Shown: positions 1 to 13,237 of the stretch, piece by piece | Numbering within the stretch: position 1 is the first letter of the stretch | Layout: each line of letters opens with the position of its first letter | Assembly: GCA_964595645.1 (NCBI GenBank) | Contig: CAZQQT010000002.1 | Location: 128,001 to 192,000 of the forward strand | From: an uncultured Thermococci archaeon | Lineage (GTDB): Archaea; Methanobacteriota_B; Thermococci; Methanofastidiosales; B48-G16 | Reading direction: 5' to 3' | DNA: 64,000 nt | Translations under genes and position numbers: made by a program | Notes under the pieces: generated by a model | The model's input: the letters and a program-made list of their open reading frames with translations, nothing else | What the model was told of the DNA's origin: nothing | Databases searched by the model: none

Positions 1-320
1 ATTGAAATTCCAGGTACTGCTCCCGCAATGGCGGTGAAGAACCGCAGGGTTGTTCCGGAGCCTCCACAGTTCATAACTCCGTCTGAAGGGGAGAGAGTAT
101 CTGTACCTTCTACTATCAGCGGATCTCCATGGGTCATTTCCGCTCCCACTTTTTTACACATATCCAGTGTTCTCATTGTGTCTTCGCAGTATAACGGGGT
201 GGATATTCTCGATCTTCCATCGGCCAAAGATGCGCAGATCATTGCTCTATGGGTGCAACTTTTTGAAGGTGGAGCTTTTACTTCTCCCTCAACATGACTT
301 TTTCTCACAACAATACTCAT
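1..320 (-). CDS. aroA: EPSP synthase, 5' part (runs off the window)
   Basis: Not in ORF track; manual translation MSIVVRKSHVEGEVKAPPSKSCTHRAMICASLA...CEDT...CGGSGTTLRF has the PxSKS..HR and SGTTxR motifs; overlaps the aroK 3' end. Confidence 0.93.
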   Translation of the reverse strand, partial: MSIVVRKSHVEGEVKAPPSKSCTHRAMICASLADGRSRISTPLYCEDTMRTLDMCKKVGAEMTHGDPLIVEGTDTLSPSDGVMNCGGSGTTLRFFTAIAGAVPGIS

Positions 321-804
321 AATATCGTCTCATTATAGTGTCTATCACGGTATTTACCGAACACTCAGTATTTACAGTGATGTCGGCTGCCGAAGCATAG
401 AGAGGCGCTCTCTCTTTTAGAAGTGCACGAAGATCTGTGGACATAAGCGGACGGTTGGTATCTTCGGATATACGCTGGAGTATCTCTTCGAGAGAGGCCG
501 TGAGTAGTACAACAACTCCCTTTTTCTTTAACCGCTTGATATTTTCAGAGTTTAGTACCACCCCTCCACCACAGCTTATCACCGCATCTCCGATCGCAGT
601 GATCTCCTTAATTACCTTTTTTTCATACTCCCTGAATCTATTTTCTCCCTCCTCCTCGAATATCTTTGGTATTGACTTTTCAGCTTTTTCTTCTATGAGA
701 TCATCCGTCTCAATAAACCTTTTTTCAAGTTTTTCTGCAAGGATTTTTCCAATTGTACTTTTTCCTGCCCCCATGAATCCTATGAGGACGACATTATTGT
801 TCAT
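289..804 (-). CDS. aroK: Shikimate kinase, bacterial AroK/AroL type
   Basis: GFMGAGKST P-loop, FEEEGE..FR..E, SCGGGVV, RPL motifs. Confidence 0.95.
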   Translation of the reverse strand: MNNNVVLIGFMGAGKSTIGKILAEKLEKRFIETDDLIEEKAEKSIPKIFEEEGENRFREYEKKVIKEITAIGDAVISCGGGVVLNSENIKRLKKKGVVVLLTASLEEILQRISEDTNRPLMSTDLRALLKERAPLYASAADITVNTECSVNTVIDTIMRRYYEYCCEKKSC

Positions 805-1649
805 CGACTTCCCTCCAGATATAAAAGAAGAGCATCTCGCATTACTTCAAGGGGCGGGTTTCTTCCAGTCCATAGTTTGAATCCTGGAACAGCTTGCTGG
901 ATGAGCATATCCATCCCATGGATTATCTTACATCCCGCTCTTTCTGCCTCCTCGAGCAGTCTAGTTTTTAAAGGAGTATACACTACGTCTATTACCGTGA
1001 TAGTAGGGTTCAGCATTTCTGCGGTGACAAGTGTTTCATTTTCTAATTTCCCTTTCATTCCCACGGATGTGCAGTGTATCACTATATCTGCGTCTTTTAG
1101 TTCTTCGCGTAGGTTATCCAGTCCTCCCCAGTGTATTTCTCCCTTTGTGACTCTTTCCATCTCATGTGAGATCCTTTTCGCTCTTTCTACAGTTCTATTA
1201 AGAATAACAAGTGATCGAAGATCGTACTGTGTGAGTGCAAGGGTGATTGCTTTCACCGTTCCCCCTGCGCCAAGTGTCACCACTTTTTTCCCTGTGATCC
1301 TGAGCGAGTGTGCTTCTATCATTTTCAGGAAACCTCTTCCATCGGTGTTGTGTCCAATGACCTTCCCGTTTTCCCTGTAAAGTGTATTTACTGCGCCTAC
1401 TTGTGTGGCTTGTTTAGTGAGTCCATCGAGGGACGACAGCACAGTTTCCTTAAAGGGTGTTATCACATTTCCTCCTATAATTTTCCCTCTTCTAATCCGT
1501 TCAATCACTTCAGCTATTTCCTCTTCCTTTGCTTTTGTTTTTCCATAGTAAAACTTCTTATCTAACCCAAGTGCGCCCAAGGCTACATTGTGTATTAAAG
1601 GGCTTAGAGAATGACTGACAGGGTTTCCTATAACAGTTAACCTCTTCAT
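801..1649 (-). CDS. aroE: Shikimate dehydrogenase
   Basis: HSLSP, PFK, GAVNT, NTDG, GAGG, NRT motifs. Confidence 0.95.
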   Translation of the reverse strand: MKRLTVIGNPVSHSLSPLIHNVALGALGLDKKFYYGKTKAKEEEIAEVIERIRRGKIIGGNVITPFKETVLSSLDGLTKQATQVGAVNTLYRENGKVIGHNTDGRGFLKMIEAHSLRITGKKVVTLGAGGTVKAITLALTQYDLRSLVILNRTVERAKRISHEMERVTKGEIHWGGLDNLREELKDADIVIHCTSVGMKGKLENETLVTAEMLNPTITVIDVVYTPLKTRLLEEAERAGCKIIHGMDMLIQQAVPGFKLWTGRNPPLEVMRDALLLYLEGSR

Positions 1650-2311
1650 AGGATCACTTCATGAACTGCTCGAAGCGTTGCAGCACGCAACTGTCCCGGT
1701 GCTACCCGATCCCCTGCAAATGTGTAAGTAAACGGTGCACCGTATAAAGATCCAATAACACGGGTAAATCTTCCTGTTTCCCCCATGGTAAATGCAACAA
1801 GCGGAAAATTCTCTTTTTTTGCCTTTAAAAGGAGAGAAAGTACTCTATGACAGTCTTCTATAGAGTGGGCTGTAGTTACGATCTTCCCGATGTCTGCTCC
1901 CTGACTTTGTTCCATTTTCATGATATTATGAAGTTTTATTGTTGTTGGTGTCCTTTCAAAATCGTGTTGGGAGATAATTACACCACAATTGTTCTTTTTC
2001 GCGTGTTTTATTAGTTCCTCTTTCATTTCATTCTGCGTTTTAAGTTCAATATCGATCATGGTACAGCCAGCATTTATAGCGTCAATGAGAGATGCGATCC
2101 TTGATTTTTCTGTTCCCGTATAGTATCCACCAGATGAAGAAGACCGATTTGTTGCGATAACGGGGAATTTACTTGCAGTATATATTTTCTCTAATCCCTC
2201 TATTTCTCCCATAAAATCTATTCTATGTTCTATAAGATCTGTATTGAGTTTTTCGATTACTTCTATACACTTTTTCGATGTTTTTTGTGCAACACATGCG
2301 CATATTTTCAT
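1646..2311 (-). CDS. aroD: Type I 3-dehydroquinate dehydratase
   Basis: EHRID, IDIEL, SQHDFERTP, DIGKIV, MGETG..TR, APGQ motifs. Confidence 0.93.
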   Translation of the reverse strand: MKICACVAQKTSKKCIEVIEKLNTDLIEHRIDFMGEIEGLEKIYTASKFPVIATNRSSSSGGYYTGTEKSRIASLIDAINAGCTMIDIELKTQNEMKEELIKHAKKNNCGVIISQHDFERTPTTIKLHNIMKMEQSQGADIGKIVTTAHSIEDCHRVLSLLLKAKKENFPLVAFTMGETGRFTRVIGSLYGAPFTYTFAGDRVAPGQLRAATLRAVHEVIL

Positions 2312-3384
2312 TTTAAATCCTCCAGTACTTCTTTTACAGTTTCTTGTGGGACGTCGTTCCGCATGGCCACCGTACCTATCTCCTCAGGAAGTACGAATGT
2401 GATGTGATTCCGTTGTGTCTTTTTATCGTACTGCATCCTCTCAAGAACAGCACTCGTACTGACTTCGGGGAGCGTTGTGGGGAGTCCGGTCTGGACGATA
2501 AGTTCTTCTTGCCGGTGTACAGCCTCGGTGTAGAGAATTCCCATTTTTTCTGCAATCCGTGCGGCGGCACACATTCCTATTGCCACAGCTCCTCCATGAG
2601 ATAGTGTAAAATTGGTAACAGCTTCAAGTGCATGCCCCACTGTGTGTCCATAGTTCAGTATCTTTCGCACTCCAATCTCCCTTTTATCCTTCTCCACAAC
2701 ACCGATCTTTATCCTACAACATTTTTCTATGATATCTTCCAGCGGAGGAGAAAGAAGAAGGTTTTCTCTACTTTCTTCAAGCGTCTCAAAGAGAGAAGCA
2801 TCTCTGATCATTGCATATTTTATTATCTCTGCAACACCATTTTTCATCTCCTCTTCAGGAAGCGTGGAAAGTACCTCTGTATCTATAAGGACGAGCTCCG
2901 GATCTTTGAATGCGCCGATGATATTTTTCGCATGTGTGTAGTTTACCCCTGTTTTTCCACCGATGCAGCTGTCTACTTGAGCGAGAAGAGTAGTGGGAAG
3001 ATGAATGAGCGGGAGACCTCTTAGATAGGTGGCGGCCACAAAACCTGCAAGATCTCCCACTACTCCCCCACCCAACGCGATTATAGGCGTGAATCTCTCT
3101 ATTCTGTGCTGTAGGAGCTCTTCGTAGATCATCGATGCCATTTCCAACGATTTGCTTTTTTCAGTGTCAGGAATTTCAAGCACCGTTAGCTCGAATTCCT
3201 CATTCAGTAAACTTTTCTTCACGGTCTCTCCATGCAGCTCATTGATCGTTTTATTTGTCACAATTACTGCTTTGGAAGAGTACCCTCTTTTTTTCAGCAT
3301 TGGCCCGATGGTGGAGAGGATCCCACGATCTATAAAGATCCCATAGTTGTTCTGAGGGTGATGGACAGTCAGCTTCCGTCTCAT
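2308..3384 (-). CDS. aroB: 3-dehydroquinate synthase
   Basis: [50 protein letters not shown]. Confidence 0.97.
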
Positions 3385-4430
3385 ATATCTATCATCCTCT
3401 TAAGCTGATGCATCATCTCTGCGAATTGATCGGTTGTGAGCGATTGGTTTCCATCACATAGCGCATCAGCGGGTCTGTTGTGTACCTCTACCATGACACC
3501 ATCTGCACCTGCCGCAATAGCGGCCTTTACCAGAGGGATTACAGCACTCCGTTTCCCCGTGGCATGACTCGGGTCAATGATTACGGGGAGGTGGGTGAGT
3601 TCATTGAGTACAGGAACAGCACTGATATCCAGGGTATTTCTTGTTGCAGTCTCAAATGTCTTGATTCCCCGTTCACAAAGTACCACATTCGGGTTTCCTT
3701 GCGACATAATATACTCTGTTGCAAAAAGGAGATCTTTGATCGTGGCATTCATACTTCGTTTTAGGAATATGGGTTTGGACTGTTTTCCTACTTCCTTGAG
3801 GAGGGAGAAATTCTGCATGTTCCTGGCTCCGATCTGTAACATATCGGAGTATTTCTCTACCAAAGGCACATCCCGTGTGTCCATCACCTCTGTGACGATA
3901 GGGAGTCCTGTTTCTTCCCGTGCCTTTTCGAGAAGTTTTAATCCCAGTTCACCCAACCCCTGAAAGGAGTAGGGGGATGTTCGCGGCTTGAATGCGCCGC
4001 CGCGGAGAATTGATGCTCCCTCTTTCTTTACTCGGTGTGCGGTCTCCAGTAACTGCTCTTTGGTCTCAACACTGCAGGGACCGGCAATGACTACTGGTTT
4101 TTCACCTATAGCTATTCCGCCTACATCTATTACCGTCTTTTTGTCTTTAAACTCCCTTCCAGCCAGAATATATCGTTGGGGGGAAAATATCACTTCTTTT
4201 ACTTCCTGCAGCTGTGATATTTTTTTCACGTCGGAAATATTTTTTGCTACAACCACCGGAGCCGAAAACTCTACCGAAAAGACATCAGAACAGGTTTTTT
4301 TCAGCTGTTCCTCTATCTTAGATCGTTGCAATTTCGATAGATTTTTCTTCAGTACAACTGCGTACAATCCCCTGCTTTCTTTTCTCTCCAACTTAATTGT
4401 TTTTAGAGAAGGATGACCAATCGAACTCAT
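3381..4430 (-). CDS. aroF: DAHP synthase type I-beta with N-terminal ACT-like segment; start uncertain (AUG 4430 preferred, has GGAGG SD)
   Basis: [39 protein letters not shown] motifs. Confidence 0.93.
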
Positions 4431-4518
4431 AGTCATCTCCTCCACAATCTACACAGGCCACCTCATCCTGTCCATTGTCGTTTTCACTATTTTCGTTTCC
4501 TTCACTTTTACATTTCAT
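4393..4518 (-). CDS. Leader peptide of the aro operon, 41 aa: [41 protein letters not shown]
   Basis: Manual translation; AGGTGG SD upstream; lies just downstream of BRE/TATA; aromatic codons only at Y30, F32, W34, F37; paralogous to the pheA leader. Confidence 0.8.
4407..4443 (-). promoter_or_regulatory. Hairpin sequestering the DAHPS SD and start region
   Basis: GGAGG-A-GAUGACUA pairs with UGGUCAUC-CUUCU (13 bp including G-U pairs, one bulged A). Confidence 0.7.
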
Positions 4519-4553
4519 TTATTCCACCTTTCCCCTGATATAGACATGCATGC

Positions 4554-4570
4554 ATTTAAAAGGTTTTTGG
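4554..4570 (-). promoter_or_regulatory. BRE/TATA promoter of the aro operon
   Basis: Minus strand CCAAAAACCTTTTAAAT, about 35 nt upstream of the leader ATG; nearly identical to the pheA promoter. Confidence 0.75.
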
Positions 4571-4640
4571 TGCATTTTTATGTACATGTAGTAGTTCATT
4601 GACTATGTAGATCAATATTCATCAAATTTTCGGACACAGA

Positions 4641-5411
4641 CTAAAGATTTTTTCTTAGCGTTTCGATAAAGGTTACCATCTCACTATAGCTTTTTTTCGT
4701 GACTATATCTCTAAAATTTTCTAGCTGAGTAGTAATTTTCTCAATTTCTGCAAGCGAGTAGGGAGCAAAGAGTATTTCAGCAAGAAGATGGTTATCTTCC
4801 TCTAACAGTTTTCGTGCTACTTCCTGATGTCTTGTGAATGTTGTTCCTGGAACAGCTTTCTCCGGGAGACAGGCAGCAAAAATCAGGGAACAAATAAAAG
4901 GAAGCGCAAGCGAGTCTGCCATGAGGCTATCATGTTCATCGAAGGAACATTCGTATATATGGACACCACGAGTGAGAAAGAACCTCTTAAAAAACTGTTT
5001 GGCTGCAGTATCAGATTCTTCTATAATGATAACATTCTCTTCTTTCAAATCATCAAATGTAGTGAATCTGGGACCGAACATTGGATGGATCGAGGCATAC
5101 CTGTTTCCACACTCTTGGTAGTACAACGGCAGTTTTCCTTTAATGGAAGCAATATCCACAAGAATACAGGCCGATGGCAAGTATGGTGCAACTTCCTCAA
5201 AAACCTCGACGGTATGCTGCAGACTCACCGCATTTATCACCATTTCAGGGTCGAAGGATTTAACCTCTGCGATAGCATCGAGATGAGTAACTCCCTCTAC
5301 TGCCTCTCTTTTCTCTTTATCTTCATCGTAGATTGCTATCTCATGATTTTTTGAGAGCTCACGGGCCAGCCATGAGCCCATATTTCCAACACCTATCACC
5401 GCGATCCTCAT
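4641..5411 (-). CDS. tyrA: Prephenate dehydrogenase; true start MRIAVIG at 5411
   Basis: GVGNMG Rossmann motif, DIASIK, HPMFGP, EHD; ATGA overlap with the pheA stop. Confidence 0.92.
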   Translation of the reverse strand: MRIAVIGVGNMGSWLARELSKNHEIAIYDEDKEKREAVEGVTHLDAIAEVKSFDPEMVINAVSLQHTVEVFEEVAPYLPSACILVDIASIKGKLPLYYQECGNRYASIHPMFGPRFTTFDDLKEENVIIIEESDTAAKQFFKRFFLTRGVHIYECSFDEHDSLMADSLALPFICSLIFAACLPEKAVPGTTFTRHQEVARKLLEEDNHLLAEILFAPYSLAEIEKITTQLENFRDIVTKKSYSEMVTFIETLRKNL

Positions 5412-6463
5412 AGGATCGCCTCCGGGTAGCAGCCGAGGAATTTGTAGATTAGTGTTCGATCTTTCATCTCGCGAAGCATCTCTTTTATTCTCTCCTCTTC
5501 CACAGATCCCTGAAAATCGAGTAGAAACATGTAATGCCCGGGTCTTTCTTTTATAGGCCGGGATATTATTCGTGTGAGATTTATGTTTTTCTCGGTAAAT
5601 ATACGAAGCAGACGGTGGAGGGCACCGGGTTCGTGCTTTACTGAAACGACAATAGAACATTTTGTTCCCTTTCCACAGGGAGCAGAGGAGACAACCACGA
5701 ACCGGGTAAAATTCGAGGACACATCCCCGACGTTTCTTTTTATTATTTCGAGATTGTAACGTTCTGCACATAGTGTACTTGCGATAGCTGCAGTGGCAGG
5801 TGGGAAGGTATCTGCGATCATCCTAGCAGCACCAGCAGTATCGTAGTATGGAACTATCTCGATTCCAGTCTCCGTAAGAAAGCTCCTGCACTGTGCCAAT
5901 GCCTGCGGGTGAGAGTATACTTTTTTAATCTCGCTGAGTTCAGTGCTTGGTGGTGCGAGAAGAGCATGGTGGACAGGAAGCTGTATCTCTCCCACTATTG
6001 GAAGCTCATACGCTATTAGAAGATCCGTTACTTCTGTCACCGTTCCTTCGATTGAATTCTCAATAGGGACAATTCCCAGATCAAACCATCCATGCTCCAC
6101 CGCCTCGAATATTTCAGCAAAGGCTGTGCAGGGGATGGGCACCATTTTTTCGCTGTATCGTTTTGCAGCCATCTCCCCGTAAGCACCGTGTTCACCCTGA
6201 AATCCTATAAGTGCATGTTTTTCTCTCTGGAGTTTTTTACTTTCTGCAATTATTTTCTTAAAAATTTGTGAAGCAAACTCGTCATCTATCAGATCATGGC
6301 AGTACGTTTTAACAGTATTTATAACGCACTGTTCTCTCTTTTCATCAGTGATTTTCTCCTTCAGTTTCGTAGTCCGTAATGCCAGCTCCATTCGTTCGTT
6401 CAGCAGCGAGATAATTTCACGATCTATCCGGTTTATCTCCTCCCTTAGAAGTGTTAACTCCAT
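5408..6463 (-). CDS. pheA: Chorismate mutase / prephenate dehydratase (P-protein)
   Basis: LREEINRIDREII..LNER (CM), FQGEHGAY, PIENSIEG, SHPQALAQC, NFTRF, ACT domain NLTRIISRP. Confidence 0.96.
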   Translation of the reverse strand: MELTLLREEINRIDREIISLLNERMELALRTTKLKEKITDEKREQCVINTVKTYCHDLIDDEFASQIFKKIIAESKKLQREKHALIGFQGEHGAYGEMAAKRYSEKMVPIPCTAFAEIFEAVEHGWFDLGIVPIENSIEGTVTEVTDLLIAYELPIVGEIQLPVHHALLAPPSTELSEIKKVYSHPQALAQCRSFLTETGIEIVPYYDTAGAARMIADTFPPATAAIASTLCAERYNLEIIKRNVGDVSSNFTRFVVVSSAPCGKGTKCSIVVSVKHEPGALHRLLRIFTEKNINLTRIISRPIKERPGHYMFLLDFQGSVEEERIKEMLREMKDRTLIYKFLGCYPEAIL

Positions 6464-6573
6464 TCTTCCCCCCTCCAGAGAGATCCGTCCCTCTTTATCA
6501 CTGACACTCTCAGAAAAGTAATACTCTGTCCTTCACATTGATTCGTCCGGGAACGACTGGAAACAGAAGTCAT
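6454..6573 (-). CDS. Putative 39-aa relay uORF starting inside the pheA leader and ending over the pheA start
   Basis: GGAGGGAG SD then ACT-ATG at 6573; open to TAA within ATGGAGTTAA, a 10-nt overlap with pheA. Confidence 0.45.
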   Translation of the reverse strand: MTSVSSRSRTNQCEGQSITFLRVSVIKRDGSLWRGEEWS

Positions 6574-6649
6574 AGTCGCTCCCTCCGCTATCTCGGCAGC
6601 TTAACATATCATCTCCGCCATCCTCATTTTCTTGTTCTCCATTGTTCAT
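6533..6649 (-). CDS. Leader peptide of pheA-tyrA, 38 aa: MNNGEQENEDGGDDMLSCRDSGGSDYDFCFQSFPDESM
   Basis: Manual translation; AGGTAGGT SD-like site; just downstream of TATA; aromatic codons only at Y26, F28, F30, F33; paralogous to the aro leader. Confidence 0.8.
   Translation of the reverse strand: MNNGEQENEDGGDDMLSCRDSGGSDYDFCFQSFPDESM
6549..6583 (-). promoter_or_regulatory. Hairpin sequestering the internal SD/AUG in the pheA leader
   Basis: GGGAGCGACU pairs with AGUCGUUCCC (10 bp, one G-U). Confidence 0.7.
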
Positions 6650-6680
6650 GATACCTACCTAGACTCTCCTACACAGCTGT

Positions 6681-6696
6681 ATTTAAAAGGTTTTGG
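6681..6696 (-). promoter_or_regulatory. BRE/TATA promoter of pheA-tyrA
   Basis: Minus strand CCAAAACCTTTTAAAT, about 31 nt upstream of the leader ATG. Confidence 0.75.
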
Positions 6697-6827
6697 CACG
6701 CCAGATTTGATATGCAAGAGGCAAAAAATGTGTATGTTTTGAATCCATAAACCCTAAAAGGTATGTGTCTCTATGAGCAGGATTCCCAAAGAAAAACTTC
6801 TTTACTATCTTTTGGATACACTATTCA

Positions 6828-7607
6828 TCAGATATTCTTTGTAGGGAGACTCATTTCTTTGACGTAGGTCGTAACCTTCTCATAACTATGTGTTCTTCTT
6901 ACAATACCACTGCCAACGATTACTCCATCTGCTCCGAGATGAAGTATCTCTCGCACATGAGTGGGATGTGAGATCCCAAATCCTACACAGAGAGGAATGT
7001 CTGTGGCGGCCCGCATTCGTTTCATACATTCATGAACCTCTTGGGAAACTCTGTCCCTTTCACCGGTCACACCTAAAAGTGATACCACGTAAAGGAATCC
7101 TGTGGTAGCCTTTATAATCTTTTTAAGTCGTTTATTTGGGGTGATGGGAGATGCCAAAAATATATTTGCAAATTCATGCTCTCTTGAAAGTGTTATAAGC
7201 TCAGAAGCTTCTTCTGGTGGGAGATCAGCAGCTATCAATCCATCGGCCACCTCTGCGAAATCACTGATGAACTCGTTGATACCGTACTGCAGAATAATGT
7301 TGTAGTATGTCAAGAGTACAATAGGGATATCACGGTTCTTACGGGCCTTTTTTATTACTTTTAAGACCTTTTCCGGCGTTGTGTCGTTTTTTAGAGCTCT
7401 TTGTACTGAATTTTGTATTGTTTTTCCATCTGCTACCGGATCGGAGTGAGGAATACCCAGCTCTATAATATCTGCACCATTTTTTTCGAGAACTTCTATG
7501 AGTTTTACGGTATCTTCCAATGAAGGATCACCACAGGTGATATAGGGAATAAATGCTCTTTGATTTTTTTCCCGCAGTTTTTCGAACGTTGTATTAATGC
7601 TATTCAT
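6828..7607 (-). CDS. trpA: Tryptophan synthase alpha chain
   Basis: [40 protein letters not shown]. Confidence 0.97.
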
Positions 7608-8800
7608 ATGCGTACCTCCAAAAGTCTTACTCCTGTCTCCACATCTTTATCCCCCCGTCCTGAAAAGTTCACCACAACGATATCATCTCTTTCATACTGT
7701 TCCTTCATTTTGTGAAGATACGCAAGAGCGTGACATGTTTCAAAAGCGGGAATAATTCCCTCTGTTTTTGACACAAACTTGAAGGCATCGAGTACTTCTC
7801 TATCAGTAGCATAGTCCGCTTTTACCCTTCCGCTGTCAACAAGGTATGAGATCTCTGGACCACGGGCGGGATAGTTCAGTCCTGCACTTCGGGAGTAGGT
7901 CCGTGATATCTGTCCGTGATCGTCTTGGAGAAGGAAGGTATAGGCACCGTGAAGTACACCCTTTTTTCCTCCGGCAAATACAGCAGTATGTCGTTCTCCT
8001 TCTAGTCCTTCACCTCCTCCTTCTACAAATATGAGATTCACCTCTTCAGTGATGAACGGAAAGAACGCACCGAGGGCGTTAGAACCGCCGGAGCCGCAGG
8101 CGACGATAGCGTCGGGCAGTCGTCCTTCTTTCTCTAATAACTGATTCTTTATTTCTTTCCCGATAATGTTCTGAAACTCCCTTACTATCATGGGAAAGGG
8201 GTGAGGTCCTACTGTCGAGCCGATGAGATAGTGTGTACCCTCTACATTAGCAACCCAGTCTCGGAGAGCCTCATTCACTGCGTCTTTCAGAACACCGGAG
8301 CCTCCGGTGACAGGTGTAACTGTTGCTCCCAGAAGCTTGATCTTCAATGCATTGAGTCTCTGTCTTTTTATGTCTTTTTTCCCCATAAATACTTCTGTTT
8401 CTAAGTCCAAAAGAGCTCCTGCAGTTGCTGTAGCAAGCCCATGTTGTCCAGCGGCGGTTTCTGCGATTATTCGCTTTTTTCCCATCTTTTTTGCAAGCAA
8501 TGCCTGACCTATTGTATTATTCAATTTATGAGCGCCACCATGGACCAGATCCTCTCTTTTTAGATATATAGTGAATCCAAAATAGCGCGAAAGAGATTCG
8601 GAGAGATAGAGAGGTGTAGGCCTTCCGGCGTAATCTCTGAGATATGAATTCAATTTCTCCCGAAATTCTGGGTCTTCTTTATATTGCGTATACGATTTTT
8701 CCAGCTCTTCTAAGGCAGGCATCAATGTTTCCGGTGCAAATTGTCCACCAAACTCACCAAATTTTCCATTATTATCTGGAAAAGAGTATTTTTCTCTCAC
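7604..8800 (-). CDS. trpB: Tryptophan synthase beta chain (TrpB1)
   Basis: [46 protein letters not shown]. Confidence 0.97.
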
Positions 8801-9380
8801 TCTCTACACCTCGTGCCTTTTCGATGAACGCCTTCATTAACTGATGATTCTTTTTTCCATCCCCTTCCACCCCACTGGAAACATCAACTCCAAATGGTGC
8901 TACCTCCTGCACGGCTTCTACTACATTCCAGGGCGTAAGCCCGCCCGCTAAAATTAACGGTTTTGTTACCGTCTCGTTGATTTTTCCGGTGATTGACCAG
9001 TCGTGAACCTCACCACTCCCATATCCAGAATCGATAAGCACCATGTCTACTTTGTTTTTTATTTTTGTGAACTGTTCAGCTGTGAACTCGGAATGGAGAT
9101 ATCCTCGTATGACTCCACAGTGAAAGGGAGGGAAGGTATCTTCATATAGCTGGATATAATCTGCCGTGGTGGTTATTTCTTCGAGATTCTCTGCATGAAG
9201 TGTCACTGCCACTGTAGCAATTGAAGGAGGGACTAACATCATTAATTTTTTTGCCTTTTCGATCGAAAGATTTCTTTTACTCTCCTCTGTTTCGACAACA
9301 AATCCCAAAGCGTCCGGATAGAGTGTTACCGCATCTTTAAGTTCCCTTTTGGAGGTAATACCACATATCTTTATCCACAT
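8772..9380 (-). CDS. trpF: Phosphoribosylanthranilate isomerase
   Basis: [33 protein letters not shown]. Confidence 0.95.
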
Positions 9381-10126
9381 ACGATCAGCTCCTGTAATTT
9401 CTCCTCTGGATTCTCTGCAGTCATAAGTGCTGTGCCCACAAGAATGCCATCAATATGCTCTTTCACCGTTAATACCTGCGATCTGGTGCTGAACCCGCTC
9501 TCACTTATCAGCGGTTTTTCTACTGAGACATTTTTTAGGATTCTGCATGTATGGAAAATGTCTGTGTTCATCGTTCGCAGATCTCTGTTATTTATACCGA
9601 GAAGATCTGCTTCCGTTTCTGCTGCCTTTACCAGTTCTTTTCGGGAATGGACCTCCAGTAACACCTCGAGTCCATGCTCATGGATATATTCTATCATTTT
9701 ATCGAGATCGAAGTACCCACGATCTGCCAGTATAAAAAGCACCAAGACAGCATCTGCACCAATTCGTTCTGCAGCATCAACCTGTACTTCAGAGATGACG
9801 AAATCCTTCATTAAGAGAGGAAGATCGACCTGTTCTCTCACCTGTGCGAAACGATGTAAGCTTCCTGCAAAGCTCTTCGGTTCGGTGAGAATGGAGAGTG
9901 CAGCACAGTACTGCTCCATGGTACGTATCATCGTTGAAGGATCTTCTTCTTTTCTTAGGATCCCTTGGGAAGGCGATGCATATTTCAGCTCGCCTACTAA
10001 TGAGAAAGAGTTGTGTTCTAAGGTTTCTCTGAGTGATTTTCCCTTCTTTGCTTCCGTAGTTATATTGTAGTATCCTTCTCTCACTGTGTGTAGCGTTTCA
10101 TTCACTAGCATATCAAGGATATCCAT
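9371..10126 (-). CDS. trpC: Indole-3-glycerol phosphate synthase
   Basis: ELKYASPSQG, LSILTE, LMKDF, GINNRDL, SESG. Confidence 0.96.
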   Translation of the reverse strand: MDILDMLVNETLHTVREGYYNITTEAKKGKSLRETLEHNSFSLVGELKYASPSQGILRKEEDPSTMIRTMEQYCAALSILTEPKSFAGSLHRFAQVREQVDLPLLMKDFVISEVQVDAAERIGADAVLVLFILADRGYFDLDKMIEYIHEHGLEVLLEVHSRKELVKAAETEADLLGINNRDLRTMNTDIFHTCRILKNVSVEKPLISESGFSTRSQVLTVKEHIDGILVGTALMTAENPEEKLQELIVCG

Positions 10127-11158
10127 CTACTCACCAAACCTTTCTAGAACAGAGATATCTCCACCTTCTCTTACCAGCAGCTCAAGTTTTCTAAACGCTT
10201 GTCCAGAATCAATGCTTTCTTCAGCAATTTCCATCGCCTTTTTAAGATCGTTTGTTTTTCCTCCTGCAATTATTGCCAGTGCTGAGTTTGCTACGACAAT
10301 GTCCCTTTTTGATCCTTTTTCTCCTTTTAAAATATTGTATATTGTTCTTGCACTTTCCTCCATTCCATTTGTTTTTAAATCGCTTAAATGGGCCTTTTCA
10401 AGGCCAAAATCCTTTGGTGAGAGCTCATATATCTTTACATCCTCTTTTATTTCTGCCACGAGCGTTTTCCCCAAGATGGTAACTTCGTCCATGCCGTCTC
10501 CATGAACAACGAATGAGTGATCCACGCCGAGCCGTTCTACTGCATGAGCAATTTTTTCAATGATAGTTGGCGTATACACACCAAGTACTTGGTGGTCAGC
10601 ATCTGCGGGATTTGTTAACGGACCAAGAATATTAAACACAGTCCGCAACGCTAGGTTTTTTCGTACAGGCATTGCATATCTCATTGCAGGATGAAAAACC
10701 GGAGCGAACATAAATCCGATACCTATTTTCTCAATAATTTTTTCTATCTTTTCTGGCGCTGTCTTCATAGAGACTCCCAGAGCCTCCAGGACATCTGCAG
10801 AGCCTGCGTTGCTTGTGACAGATCTATTCCCATGTTTTGCGATGGGAACGCCCGCCCCGGCAGCAACGAACATTGCGGCTGTAGAAATATTGAATGTCTT
10901 TATTTTATCGCCCCCCGTTCCACAGGTATCGACAAGTCCTTCCTTCATAGGGGCTATCTGTATACACTGTTCTCTCATGCTTCGGGCAAACCCTGCAATT
11001 TCTTCAGAGGTTTCACCTTTCATTCTCAGTGCGATGAGAAATGCGGATATTTGTGTCTTTGATGCCCTTCCTTCCATTATGTCGTTCATACTCTCAAAAG
11101 AAGTCTCTTCTGAGAGATTTTTTCCTTCTGCCAGATCTTTTATTGCGCTTTCGATCAT
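10127..11158 (-). CDS. trpD: Anthranilate phosphoribosyltransferase
   Basis: DTCGTGGD, FNIST, AKHGNRS, RTVFNILGPLTNP. Confidence 0.97.
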   Translation of the reverse strand: MIESAIKDLAEGKNLSEETSFESMNDIMEGRASKTQISAFLIALRMKGETSEEIAGFARSMREQCIQIAPMKEGLVDTCGTGGDKIKTFNISTAAMFVAAGAGVPIAKHGNRSVTSNAGSADVLEALGVSMKTAPEKIEKIIEKIGIGFMFAPVFHPAMRYAMPVRKNLALRTVFNILGPLTNPADADHQVLGVYTPTIIEKIAHAVERLGVDHSFVVHGDGMDEVTILGKTLVAEIKEDVKIYELSPKDFGLEKAHLSDLKTNGMEESARTIYNILKGEKGSKRDIVVANSALAIIAGGKTNDLKKAMEIAEESIDSGQAFRKLELLVREGGDISVLERFGE

Positions 11159-11706
11159 TTCCTCACCTTCAAAAAGTTTTTTATTATTTTTTTGCCCTCT
11201 TTCGTGAGAATAGATTCTGGATGAAATTGTAACCCTTCTACAGGATATATTTTATGCCTAACTCCCATAATTTCCCCTTTTTCGGACCGAGCTGTTACAT
11301 AAAGGTCTTTTGGGATCTCAGACACTATTAAAGAATGGTATCTTGTAGCTTCAAATGGGTTAGCTATTCCTTTGTATACACCTTTTCCGTCATGGGAAAT
11401 TAATGATGTTTTTCCATGAACTATTCTTTTTGCTCTTTCTACCTTCCCCCCAAACGCTAAGGCAATAGCCTGATGCCCGAGACAGACGCCGAGTAGGGGA
11501 ACATGTTCCCCATGGTGCTGTATACGTGCCATGATCTCTGGGATACTTTGCGGATGACCCGGGCCTGGACTCACCACAATTTTTGCGTATTTATCGATTC
11601 TGAACTGTTCATCATTTCTTACCACACTTACTGTCGTATACTCGCCGATATACTGGACTAGATTGTAGACAAAGGAATCATAGTTATCGATAACAAGCAC
11701 CGTCAT
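11155..11706 (-). CDS. trpG: Anthranilate synthase component II
   Basis: IDNYDSFVYNL, SPGPG, GVCLGHQ, QFHPES. Confidence 0.96.
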   Translation of the reverse strand: MTVLVIDNYDSFVYNLVQYIGEYTTVSVVRNDEQFRIDKYAKIVVSPGPGHPQSIPEIMARIQHHGEHVPLLGVCLGHQAIALAFGGKVERAKRIVHGKTSLISHDGKGVYKGIANPFEATRYHSLIVSEIPKDLYVTARSEKGEIMGVRHKIYPVEGLQFHPESILTKEGKKIIKNFLKVRK

Positions 11707-13067
11707 TCTAACACCTCGTGAACAGCCTTTTTCATTGCCTCGAGTTTTTTTTCTGTTTCAAAGTACTCTTTCTCAGGGATAGAATCTGCAACAATTCCTG
11801 CACCGGCCTGCATCGTCAACACTCCTTTATTTACAGTGAGGGTCCTTATTGTAATTGCAAAGTCCATGTCACCGTTATATGAAAAATATCCCACACCCCC
11901 TGCGTAGATATCCCGTTTTTCTGGTTCTAATTCCTCGATAATTTCCATGGCTCGTATTTTTGGAGCACCACTTACAGTACCGGCTGGAAATGTTGCCCTG
12001 AAGAGGTCAAAGGCGTCTAGATCTTCACGAAGTATACCAGAAACACTGGAAACTAAATGTTGAACATGACTGTACTTCTCAACAACCATAAAGTCTCCCA
12101 CCGTCACCGATCCGTACTCACAGACCTTTCCGAGATCGTTTCTTCCGAGATCGAGGAGCATTACATGTTCTGCTCGTTCCTTTTCATCTGTCAGCATCTC
12201 TTCTGCAAGCATTGCATCTCTTTCTTCAGTTTTTCCTCTTCTCCGAGTTCCAGCAATAGGCCGTACCCACGCTTTTTTACCCTCTAGCCGCACCAACATT
12301 TCAGGGCTACTTCCCAGTACAAAAAGATCGTCAAAGTGTAGAAAGTACATATAGGGTGAGGGATTGATTTTCCTGAGAGCGCGGTAAAGAAGGAGAGGAT
12401 CACAGTCTACCTCAGCTCTGAGTTTTCGTGAGAGAACGACCTGGAAAATATCCCCTGCGTAGATATACTCCTTGGCTCTTTGCACTATTTTCTCAAATGC
12501 TTTTTTTGAGATAGAGGAATAAAATTTTTTGTGTGTTCCATTAGTAGATAGTATCTTTTTTTCCTTCAACTTTTCTTCAAGACACGCAATTCGTTCCTCC
12601 GCACGGCTGTACGGTTCATGGCTGTCCAATGTAACAAGGATGTATGTCTTCTTGGCGACATGATCGAATACAATACAGTCATCGGTTACCATGAAGAGTG
12701 CATCGGGAATGGCATTCTCTACATTTTCTTTGGGTAGCCTTTCAAACTGCCTCACCATATCATAAGAAACAAACCCCACGATGCCTCCAACGAATCTCGA
12801 TATATTTTTATCTGAGCATGTTTTCTTTTGTACAAACTTTTCCAGAGATTCTATGGACTTATCCTTCAGCGAGATATGTTCCCTGGAGATGCCAAGGAAG
12901 GAGAATCTAGCAGTTTTATCAAACTCCGCACTTTCAAGGAGAAAAGAGTAGGGCTTTTTAATCCTCAAATAGGCTTCTAAAGGTGAAATGTTTAGTTTAA
13001 TCTCCTTAGACAGACATATTTTTTCATAATCTTTTCTTACATCTTCAAATTCTGATCTCGATAACAT
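11703..13067 (-). CDS. trpE: Anthranilate synthase component I
   Basis: LLES, NPSPYM, PIAGTR, KERAEH, FPAGTVSGAPK. Confidence 0.96.
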   Translation of the reverse strand: MLSRSEFEDVRKDYEKICLSKEIKLNISPLEAYLRIKKPYSFLLESAEFDKTARFSFLGISREHISLKDKSIESLEKFVQKKTCSDKNISRFVGGIVGFVSYDMVRQFERLPKENVENAIPDALFMVTDDCIVFDHVAKKTYILVTLDSHEPYSRAEERIACLEEKLKEKKILSTNGTHKKFYSSISKKAFEKIVQRAKEYIYAGDIFQVVLSRKLRAEVDCDPLLLYRALRKINPSPYMYFLHFDDLFVLGSSPEMLVRLEGKKAWVRPIAGTRRRGKTEERDAMLAEEMLTDEKERAEHVMLLDLGRNDLGKVCEYGSVTVGDFMVVEKYSHVQHLVSSVSGILREDLDAFDLFRATFPAGTVSGAPKIRAMEIIEELEPEKRDIYAGGVGYFSYNGDMDFAITIRTLTVNKGVLTMQAGAGIVADSIPEKEYFETEKKLEAMKKAVHEVLE

Positions 13068-13105
13068 AATATCCCCTCCTCCGATAAGAACTCACGCAGA
13101 GTACC

Positions 13106-13171
13106 TTAGAATCGCCACTCCTCTAATAAAGAGAGAAATTCCAGTGTTCCCAGTAGGGGCTTACTCTGCAT
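13106..13171 (-). CDS. Candidate leaderless trp leader peptide MQSKPLLGTLEFLSLLEEWRF
   Basis: ATG lies 29 nt from the first T of TTTATAAA, the expected TSS position; single Trp codon at position 19 of 21. Confidence 0.45.
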   Translation of the reverse strand: MQSKPLLGTLEFLSLLEEWRF

Positions 13172-13176
13172 ACCAT
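13123..13176 (-). CDS. Alternative trp leader peptide MVCRVSPYWEHWNFSLY
   Basis: Two Trp, two Tyr and one Phe in 17 codons; ATG only 24 nt from the TATA start, so it may lie upstream of the TSS. Confidence 0.4.
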   Translation of the reverse strand: MVCRVSPYWEHWNFSLY

Positions 13177-13192
13177 TCCAGAAGAAAGAGCA

Positions 13193-13237
13193 TTTATAAA
13201 CTTTACGCTTTTGTACATGAAAGTATAATATAGTACA
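13193..13237 (-). promoter_or_regulatory. trp operon promoter (BRE CGTAAAG + TTTATAAA) with three TGTACA-like boxes at 10-bp period
   Basis: TGTACA 13212-17, AGTATA 13222-27, AGTACA 13232-37; resembles archaeal TRP boxes. Confidence 0.6.

Follow-up and report, generated by a model that had tools for sequence, protein, structure and literature searches.

A DAHP synthase-derived open reading frame as a possible ribosome relay to pheA in the aro/phe/trp cluster of an uncultured Thermococci archaeon

Leader-peptide control has, to our knowledge, scarcely been described in archaea. In the coat-lysis arrangement of phage MS2 an overlapping ORF lies out of frame with the one upstream, and its start codon, buried in RNA structure, is reached only by translating the upstream ORF. 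The locus described here shares the buried, out-of-frame start inside an upstream ORF, whereas the MS2 system is viral, serves a different purpose and has neither amino-acid-sensing codons nor a relay to a third ORF. The pheL-pheA arrangement of E. coli (Rfam Phe_leader) is similar in that a leader ORF with Phe codons precedes a gene for chorismate mutase/prephenate dehydratase; here, in contrast, the promoter is archaeal, there is neither a terminator/antiterminator pair nor an Rfam match, and the output appears to be translational, by way of a second ORF.

Translation-level amino-acid attenuators have been found in mycobacteria in the form of polycysteine leaderless sORFs (10.1101/834739), in which, as here, codons for the end product act on an RNA structure that hides a ribosome binding site (RBS) and no terminator hairpin is involved. 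The RBS freed in that case is that of the regulated gene, whereas here it is that of a relay ORF (in the aro copy, of the enzyme) and, being part of the 5' arm, precedes the control codons. Pairs of genes coupled by termination-reinitiation (TeRe; PMC6728339, PMC10666635) resemble the present locus in having co-directional ORFs, a stop close to the next start and a downstream Shine-Dalgarno (SD) sequence inside the upstream ORF, but in our case no product of the upstream ORF is conserved, its start is a regulated AUG buried in a hairpin within a leader ORF, and the overlap is 10 nt (14 in one related locus) as against 4 or 1 nt in the tested cases. The idea of bacterial uORFs that deliver ribosomes has been reviewed (PMC12548453), and in Sinorhizobium meliloti overlapping uORFs act by coupling (PMC13285730). 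Such uORFs are likewise short and their proposed sole role is to bring ribosomes to the next start; the ORF considered here differs in being archaeal, a fossil of an enzyme gene, second in a series and in out-of-frame overlap with a sensing leader. Our search of the literature returned no archaeal case and no relay built from an enzyme fragment.

The window, by which we mean the entire 64,000-nt stretch of DNA that was analysed, carries an aro/phe/trp cluster on its minus strand with the following features.

13067..6828, minus strand: trpEGDCFBA, the first block of the aro/phe/trp cluster
6680..6696, minus strand: archaeal BRE/TATA promoter CCAAAACCTTTTAAATA of the pheA-tyrA unit, as read from the sequence
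6533..6649, minus strand: leader ORF of 38 codons, with Y26, F28, F30 and F33 in the hairpin loop and 3' arm
6582..6586, minus strand: GGAGG Shine-Dalgarno sequence of the hidden start, 8 nt ahead of the ATG at 6573 and complementary to the 3' end of 16S rRNA
6549..6583, minus strand: leader hairpin with a 10-bp stem (GGGAGCGACU/AGUCGUUCCC), -17.5 kcal/mol
6454..6573, minus strand: +1 ORF of 39 codons (MTSVSSRS...LWRGEEWS), the candidate relay uORF
6477..6494, minus strand: small purine/pyrimidine hairpin AGAGGGA-CGGA-UCUCUCU in the uORF, directly before the pheA SD
6468..6476, minus strand: pheA Shine-Dalgarno sequence GGAGGGGGG, inside the 3' end of the uORF
5408..6463, minus strand: pheA, with the Pfam domains CM_2 (chorismate mutase), PDT (prephenate dehydratase) and ACT
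5408..5411, minus strand: ATGA in which the stop of pheA and the start of tyrA overlap, the putative next link of a coupled chain
5411..4641, minus strand: tyrA, whose start overlaps the pheA stop
4518..4393, minus strand: aro leader ORF of 41 codons, with a second BRE/TATA element upstream and DAHP synthase downstream

The minus-strand order is thus trpEGDCFBA, BRE/TATA, the 38-codon leader, pheA, tyrA, the second BRE/TATA, the 41-codon leader, DAHP synthase (DAHPS) and other aro genes. The BRE/TATA block of the pheA-tyrA promoter is kept in all five of the modules aligned, and the same motif occurs upstream of the aro leader. The 16S rRNA of the host ends in GAUCACCUCCU at its 3' end, which makes SD sites of the GGAGG type meaningful in this genome. 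The cluster already relies on overlaps: ATGA overlaps occur at eight other junctions, and trpC (IGPS) and trpF (PRAI) share a genuine 10-nt overlap, ATGTGGATAA (window 9371-9380, minus strand), with a geometry that matches the uORF/pheA junction; we counted this in favour of the relay proposed below.

With four Phe/Tyr codons (Y26, F28, F30, F33) inside eight codons, the pheA leader has the enrichment that characterises classical attenuators. The aro leader is its paralogue, and the leaders of the related loci L113, L114 and L112 are homologous to it; leader profile searches recovered this set, a further leader of the aro type (P0124) and, as their only other hit, P0130 (857 aa, 4 stretches). 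The control codons differ between the two types, the four pheA-type leaders having only Phe and Tyr and the aro-type leaders having Trp in addition. In the window the hairpin-loop residues read YEFDWSSF in aro vs YDFCFQSF in pheA, and Trp codons stand solely ahead of the common pathway.

The leader stem (6583-6549; -17.5 kcal/mol, z -4.72) was matched in stability by none of 200 shuffles and is the sole leader structure to beat them, the fold of the whole leader giving a z of +0.70. It is maintained with differing arm sequences in the aro module of the window and in L113, L114 and L112. A hidden start is built into this stem, with its SD lying partly in the 5' arm and its AUG at the 5' edge of the loop. 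The hidden ATG (6573) is in the +1 frame relative to the leader ORF and straddles the leader's Tyr26 codon; in all modules GGAG occupies the same position and the loop Tyr codon is TAT followed by G, compared with 17.9% of the 380 Tyr codons in window genes. A classical transcription attenuator of the pheL/trpL kind was considered and rejected: no terminator/antiterminator pair was found, the one significant leader stem is not followed by a U-tract, and a search of positions 3000-13000 gave no Rfam match at E<=1. With a ribosome halted on the aromatic codons, the hidden AUG would be no more than about 20 nt away, and one possibility is that this ribosome, by occupying the 3' arm, keeps the SD exposed; a standby 30S subunit on the exposed SD would, in our inference, be the simplest reading consistent with induction on starvation.

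Reading of the sequence agrees with the preliminary description of the ORF opened by this hidden start: it begins at the ATG at 6573, comprises 39 codons and ends with a TAA (6456-6454) within ATGGAGTTAA, overlapping the pheA ATG (6463) by 10 nt. Considered alone, the openness of the frame in the window is not beyond chance, with a P(open) of 0.18-0.30: the whole frame is open in 17.5% of dinucleotide shuffles, and the 17 codons outside the leader ORF and the pheA SD in 30%. Nor is the overlap special in itself, since early out-of-frame stops are common in pheA genes; such a stop lies within 10 nt of the ATG in 14 of 19 unrelated control pheA starts, and the early stop was consequently rejected as evidence. 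The product of the window uORF has no Pfam family.

Related loci were therefore taken from the contigs that encode the three best matches to pheA, all in metagenome lineages (L113; L114/L115/L207; L112). The best pheA among 5.8 billion proteins is 58% identical to that of the window, and the three lineages range from 57 to 58%. All three have a BRE/TATA element, a leader ORF containing codons for Tyr and Phe, and a hairpin with GGAG, a spacer of ~8 nt and an ATG, and G-rich SDs stand in the place equivalent to that of the window's pheA SD. The +1 ORFs, with P(open) from dinucleotide shuffles, are as follows.

L113: 76 codons, junction ATGGAACTAA, overlap 10 nt; P(open) 0.0072 for the whole interval, 0.015 for the unconstrained part
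L114/L115/L207: 73 codons, junction ATGGAATTAG, overlap 10 nt; P(open), calculated for L114, 0.015 for the whole interval, 0.032 for the unconstrained part
L112: 52 codons, other frame class, overlap 14 nt; P(open) 0.048 for the whole interval, 0.082 for the unconstrained part

A +1 frame that stays open in relatives was the check that the preliminary description had put forward, and in each of these lineages the frame does run open past the pheA ATG, with the remaining two frames containing 1-10 stops per locus. Fisher combination gives 0.0024 for the three lineages and 0.018 without the recently copied L113. Because the frame is open in all relatives, the uORF is more than chance, unlike what can be said of the window alone; the sample is nevertheless one of four lineages only, of which L113 is a recent copy with little time to decay. 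The region is orthologous, as judged from L207, in which the order trpB-trpA-leader-pheA is that of the window and trpA is 68% identical to the window trpA. L207 is a strain-level relative of L114; in place of tyrA after pheA, a local rearrangement (L207:2874-3153) has put an ORF of 38 codons and, in inverted orientation, an anthranilate phosphoribosyltransferase-like gene. By comparison with L113 and L114 the window uORF has lost 105 and 93 nt respectively, both multiples of three.

The most serious alternative to a working relay is that the ORF is a neutral leftover of the DAHPS 5' end, no longer needed, with pheA using its own SD and the frame open by chance or for want of time to close. 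The lack of significance of the window ORF alone, the apparently neutral drift of its sequence, the recency of the L113 copy and a pheA SD that is strong and not specially masked in two of the four loci all agree with such an explanation. Against it, the frame is open in four of four lineages despite divergence beyond alignment, net indels of 93-105 nt preserve the frame in three lineages, the hidden ATG and its SD are retained without the enzyme, and a conserved cassette that lacked a link to pheA would have no output. We consider neutral persistence of the open frame rather unlikely, though it deserves to be kept in mind.

The source of the ORF can be traced through the aro module. It had been claimed that in aro the +1 frame is the enzyme itself, and this is borne out: the frame from the equivalent hidden ATG is DAHP synthase, and in L111 and L202 gene callers start there. 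Starting at its residue 1, the window DAHPS can be aligned to the L113 uORF product over 68 aa at 41% identity (E 1e-11), and the L113 pheA module (1555-1935) has ~94% DNA identity to the L202 aro module (130-500), a match that starts at the promoter and stops at the beginning of the pheA SD, 22 nt short of the pheA ATG. In L200/L202 the aro module precedes a real DAHPS-aroB-aroD-aroE-aroK operon. It follows from this homology and module identity that the pheA leader is a copy of the aro control cassette (promoter, leader ORF with Tyr/Phe codons, hairpin and hidden SD and AUG), made along with some 65 codons from the start of the DAHP synthase gene, either by duplication or by conversion between paralogues. 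Differences between L113 and L202 cluster in the hairpin loop (aro Y-D-F-D-W vs pheA Y-A-F-N-S), and this points to recent copying followed by retuning of the control codons. Recent copying, from a divergent DAHPS that has so far escaped notice, may account for the L114 uORF as well. In the window, the uORF shows weak residual similarity to that of L114 (z 3.0) and no detected homology to the N-terminus of the window DAHPS (z -0.3), so it is to be regarded as a descendant by position and synteny and not as a member of the domain. The uORF is a decayed fossil of the DAHPS N-terminus, an origin that we regard as established, and the notion of such a remnant is new here.

The peptide itself appears to be unconstrained and its sequence to drift freely. 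Between L114 and L207 the uORF shows four synonymous and eight non-synonymous substitutions (4/3/5 over the codon positions), and between L113 and L202 seven synonymous and 15 non-synonymous ones, spread evenly across the codon positions. A small protein with a function of its own, such as an independent regulatory domain, is another candidate role for the uORF and would be in keeping with the L113 product, which is still like the N-terminal domain of DAHPS, but that product is without the last helix-strand of the domain and, in a search of 5.8 billion proteins, matched nothing except itself. The absence of a Pfam match, a substitution pattern that looks neutral and proteins of 39 to 76 aa that are barely alignable and have no conserved residues also oppose a protein function, which we consider hardly credible. 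What is kept is the hidden ATG, its SD and an open frame up to pheA, the first two retained even though the enzyme is gone.

A relay offers a reason for this pattern, namely that the frame is kept open as the sole route from the regulated hidden start to pheA. Distance precludes direct coupling of the leader to pheA: the leader stop lies 69 nt before the pheA ATG in the window and up to 168 nt before it across loci, whereas in both Haloferax and E. coli a spacing of 13-14 nt already reduces reinitiation steeply and one of 22-38 nt abolishes it (PMC10666635). The +1 ORF would bridge the gap, and its stop, 10-14 nt past the pheA start, is within the distance limits of TeRe (~10-20 nt, PMC10666635) in all four lineages. 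Between 6532 and 6464 no BRE/TATA-like motif or long T-run was seen on reading by eye, and the ORFs are on the same strand and overlap.

Three things are inferred here: translation of the uORF, a need for it in the expression of pheA, and termination-reinitiation as what joins the two. Ribosomes admitted at the AUG at 6573 would translate the uORF, unwinding any structure over the pheA SD, and would terminate 10 nt beyond the first base of the pheA AUG, at the UAA at 6456-6454, where the strong SD GGAGGGGGG would hold them for a restart at the AUG at 6463; tyrA would be next in the chain via its ATGA overlap. Termination-reinitiation at pheA is plausible, and that the uORF passes ribosomes from the sensor to pheA by translational coupling is, on balance, what we think probable. 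At the same time pheA could initiate independently, since its SD is strong and, in the window and L112, masked no more than in shuffles.

Translation of the uORF might instead matter as a shield against polarity, covering the transcript against early termination (by FttA acting on RNA that is not translated, or at T-runs) and leaving reinitiation dispensable. Such a shield would explain the open frame equally well, archaeal polarity and its likely dependence on FttA have been summarised (PMC12548453), and the uORFs contain a T8 in L113, a T7 in L114 and TTTT in the window and L112; however, the T4 of the latter two loci is expected to be weak as an archaeal termination signal, and the stop right at the pheA start in all loci is not required by a shield. 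We judge this explanation improbable, less so than a protein function and more so than neutral persistence. T-runs in the relay ORFs, located at L113:1860-1880 (T8), L114:520-535 and 585-595 (T7, T5) and window 6512-6518 (TTTT), could act as archaeal termination signals when untranslated.

The alternative of a fusion between uORF and PheA by -1 frameshifting was also considered. In L113 (1895-1933) a slippery-like G_GGA_AAA heptamer occurs in the uORF frame just before the pheA ATG, where slippage into the -1 frame would produce such a fusion. The heptamer is absent from the window, L114 and L112 and is therefore probably incidental, and the frameshift candidate was rejected.

An RNA switch around the pheA SD had also been proposed, in which the 5' arm of the small hairpin would pair with UCGUUCC of the leader stem and free UCUCUCU to mask the SD. 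The hairpin (6494-6477) is indeed present beside the pheA SD, while its stability is like that of shuffles (-7.3 kcal/mol, z +0.20, 111/200); L112 has a similar AAGAGGG-UAA-CUCUCUU about 60 nt from its pheA SD. Pairing of AGAGGGA with UCGUUCC amounts to 5 bp around a mismatch, is weak at -3.2 kcal/mol and would have the -17.5 kcal/mol stem as a competitor. Folding of UCUCUCU back onto the G-run of the SD (-6.1 kcal/mol, z +0.38) is at chance level. With these pairings weak or at chance level and none conserved across the four loci, the switch was abandoned. In the window, CUUUUCU (6512-6518), a sequence also kept in L112 (CTTTTCT in DNA), can pair with GGAGGGG of the pheA SD (6470-6476) and, together with GAGAG/CUCUC, forms a 12-bp helix; this extended helix covering the SD (6518-6470; -14.5 kcal/mol, z -0.34) is the MFE structure of the isolated post-leader segment and no better than shuffles.

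Masking of the pheA SD was assessed more generally by comparing the opening energy of the pheA SD/AUG with that obtained for shuffled uORF bodies. The window gave 4.0 vs 5.0 +/- 1.7 in shuffles, and the fraction of shuffles reaching the observed opening energy was 0.78 for the window, 0.49 for L112, 0.095 for L113 and 0.010 for L114. The result is mixed, being significant only in L114 and not in the window or L112.

The geometry of the overlap also permits an inhibitory role, in which ribosomes that traverse the pheA SD and AUG out of frame and pause at the stop 7 nt downstream would block initiation at pheA, and occlusion of an RBS by upstream ribosomes has been shown in bacteria (PMC13285730). 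This would, however, regulate pheA in the direction opposite to DAHPS, whose own synthesis begins directly at a hidden start of this kind, and the other overlaps of the cluster serve positive coupling; inhibition is accordingly, in our estimate, very improbable. Since the hidden start of aro makes DAHPS directly, pheA would be co-regulated with it only if translation of the uORF promotes pheA, and the sign of regulation thus favours positive coupling, as the relay would provide.

The arrangement is rare. Across 133 genomes of the phylum the cassette pattern matched only the two copies in this genome, with no control matches; the hairpin pattern was found in none of the 132 other genomes of the phylum, and the cassette in none of about 190 other pheA loci, including close loci in Micrarchaeota and other contigs. 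With this query pheA was not found in five other genomes of the same genus or family (69-94% complete), and its closest homologues elsewhere, 52-58% identical, are in metagenome contigs, Micrarchaeota and Planctomycetota. The whole aro/phe/trp cluster (window 1-13227) may be an acquired island.

In conclusion, the locus provides a concrete wiring diagram for archaeal leader-peptide control, and would show how a start-codon switch can be reused for another gene, with an ORF that has no product being kept open as a bridge. It would also be an example of selection acting on the openness of a reading frame and not on its product. Termination-reinitiation can be studied here, in a natural setting, as a means of regulation and not as a device for stoichiometry, and the idea is directly testable, as a TAT-to-TAC change at 6572 would be silent in the leader and remove the hidden AUG. 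More tentatively, the cassette can be pictured as a portable, purely translational amino-acid sensor of this group of archaea that spreads by being copied along with the 5' end of the gene under its control, the copied fragment then being kept solely to conduct ribosomes to the new target (a 'fossil relay ORF'); we regard this wider picture as possible and somewhat less probable than the relay itself. If true, archaea would possess a naturally evolved uORF circuit of two stages, in which Trp codons belong to the aro copy and are missing from the one that serves pheA-tyrA.
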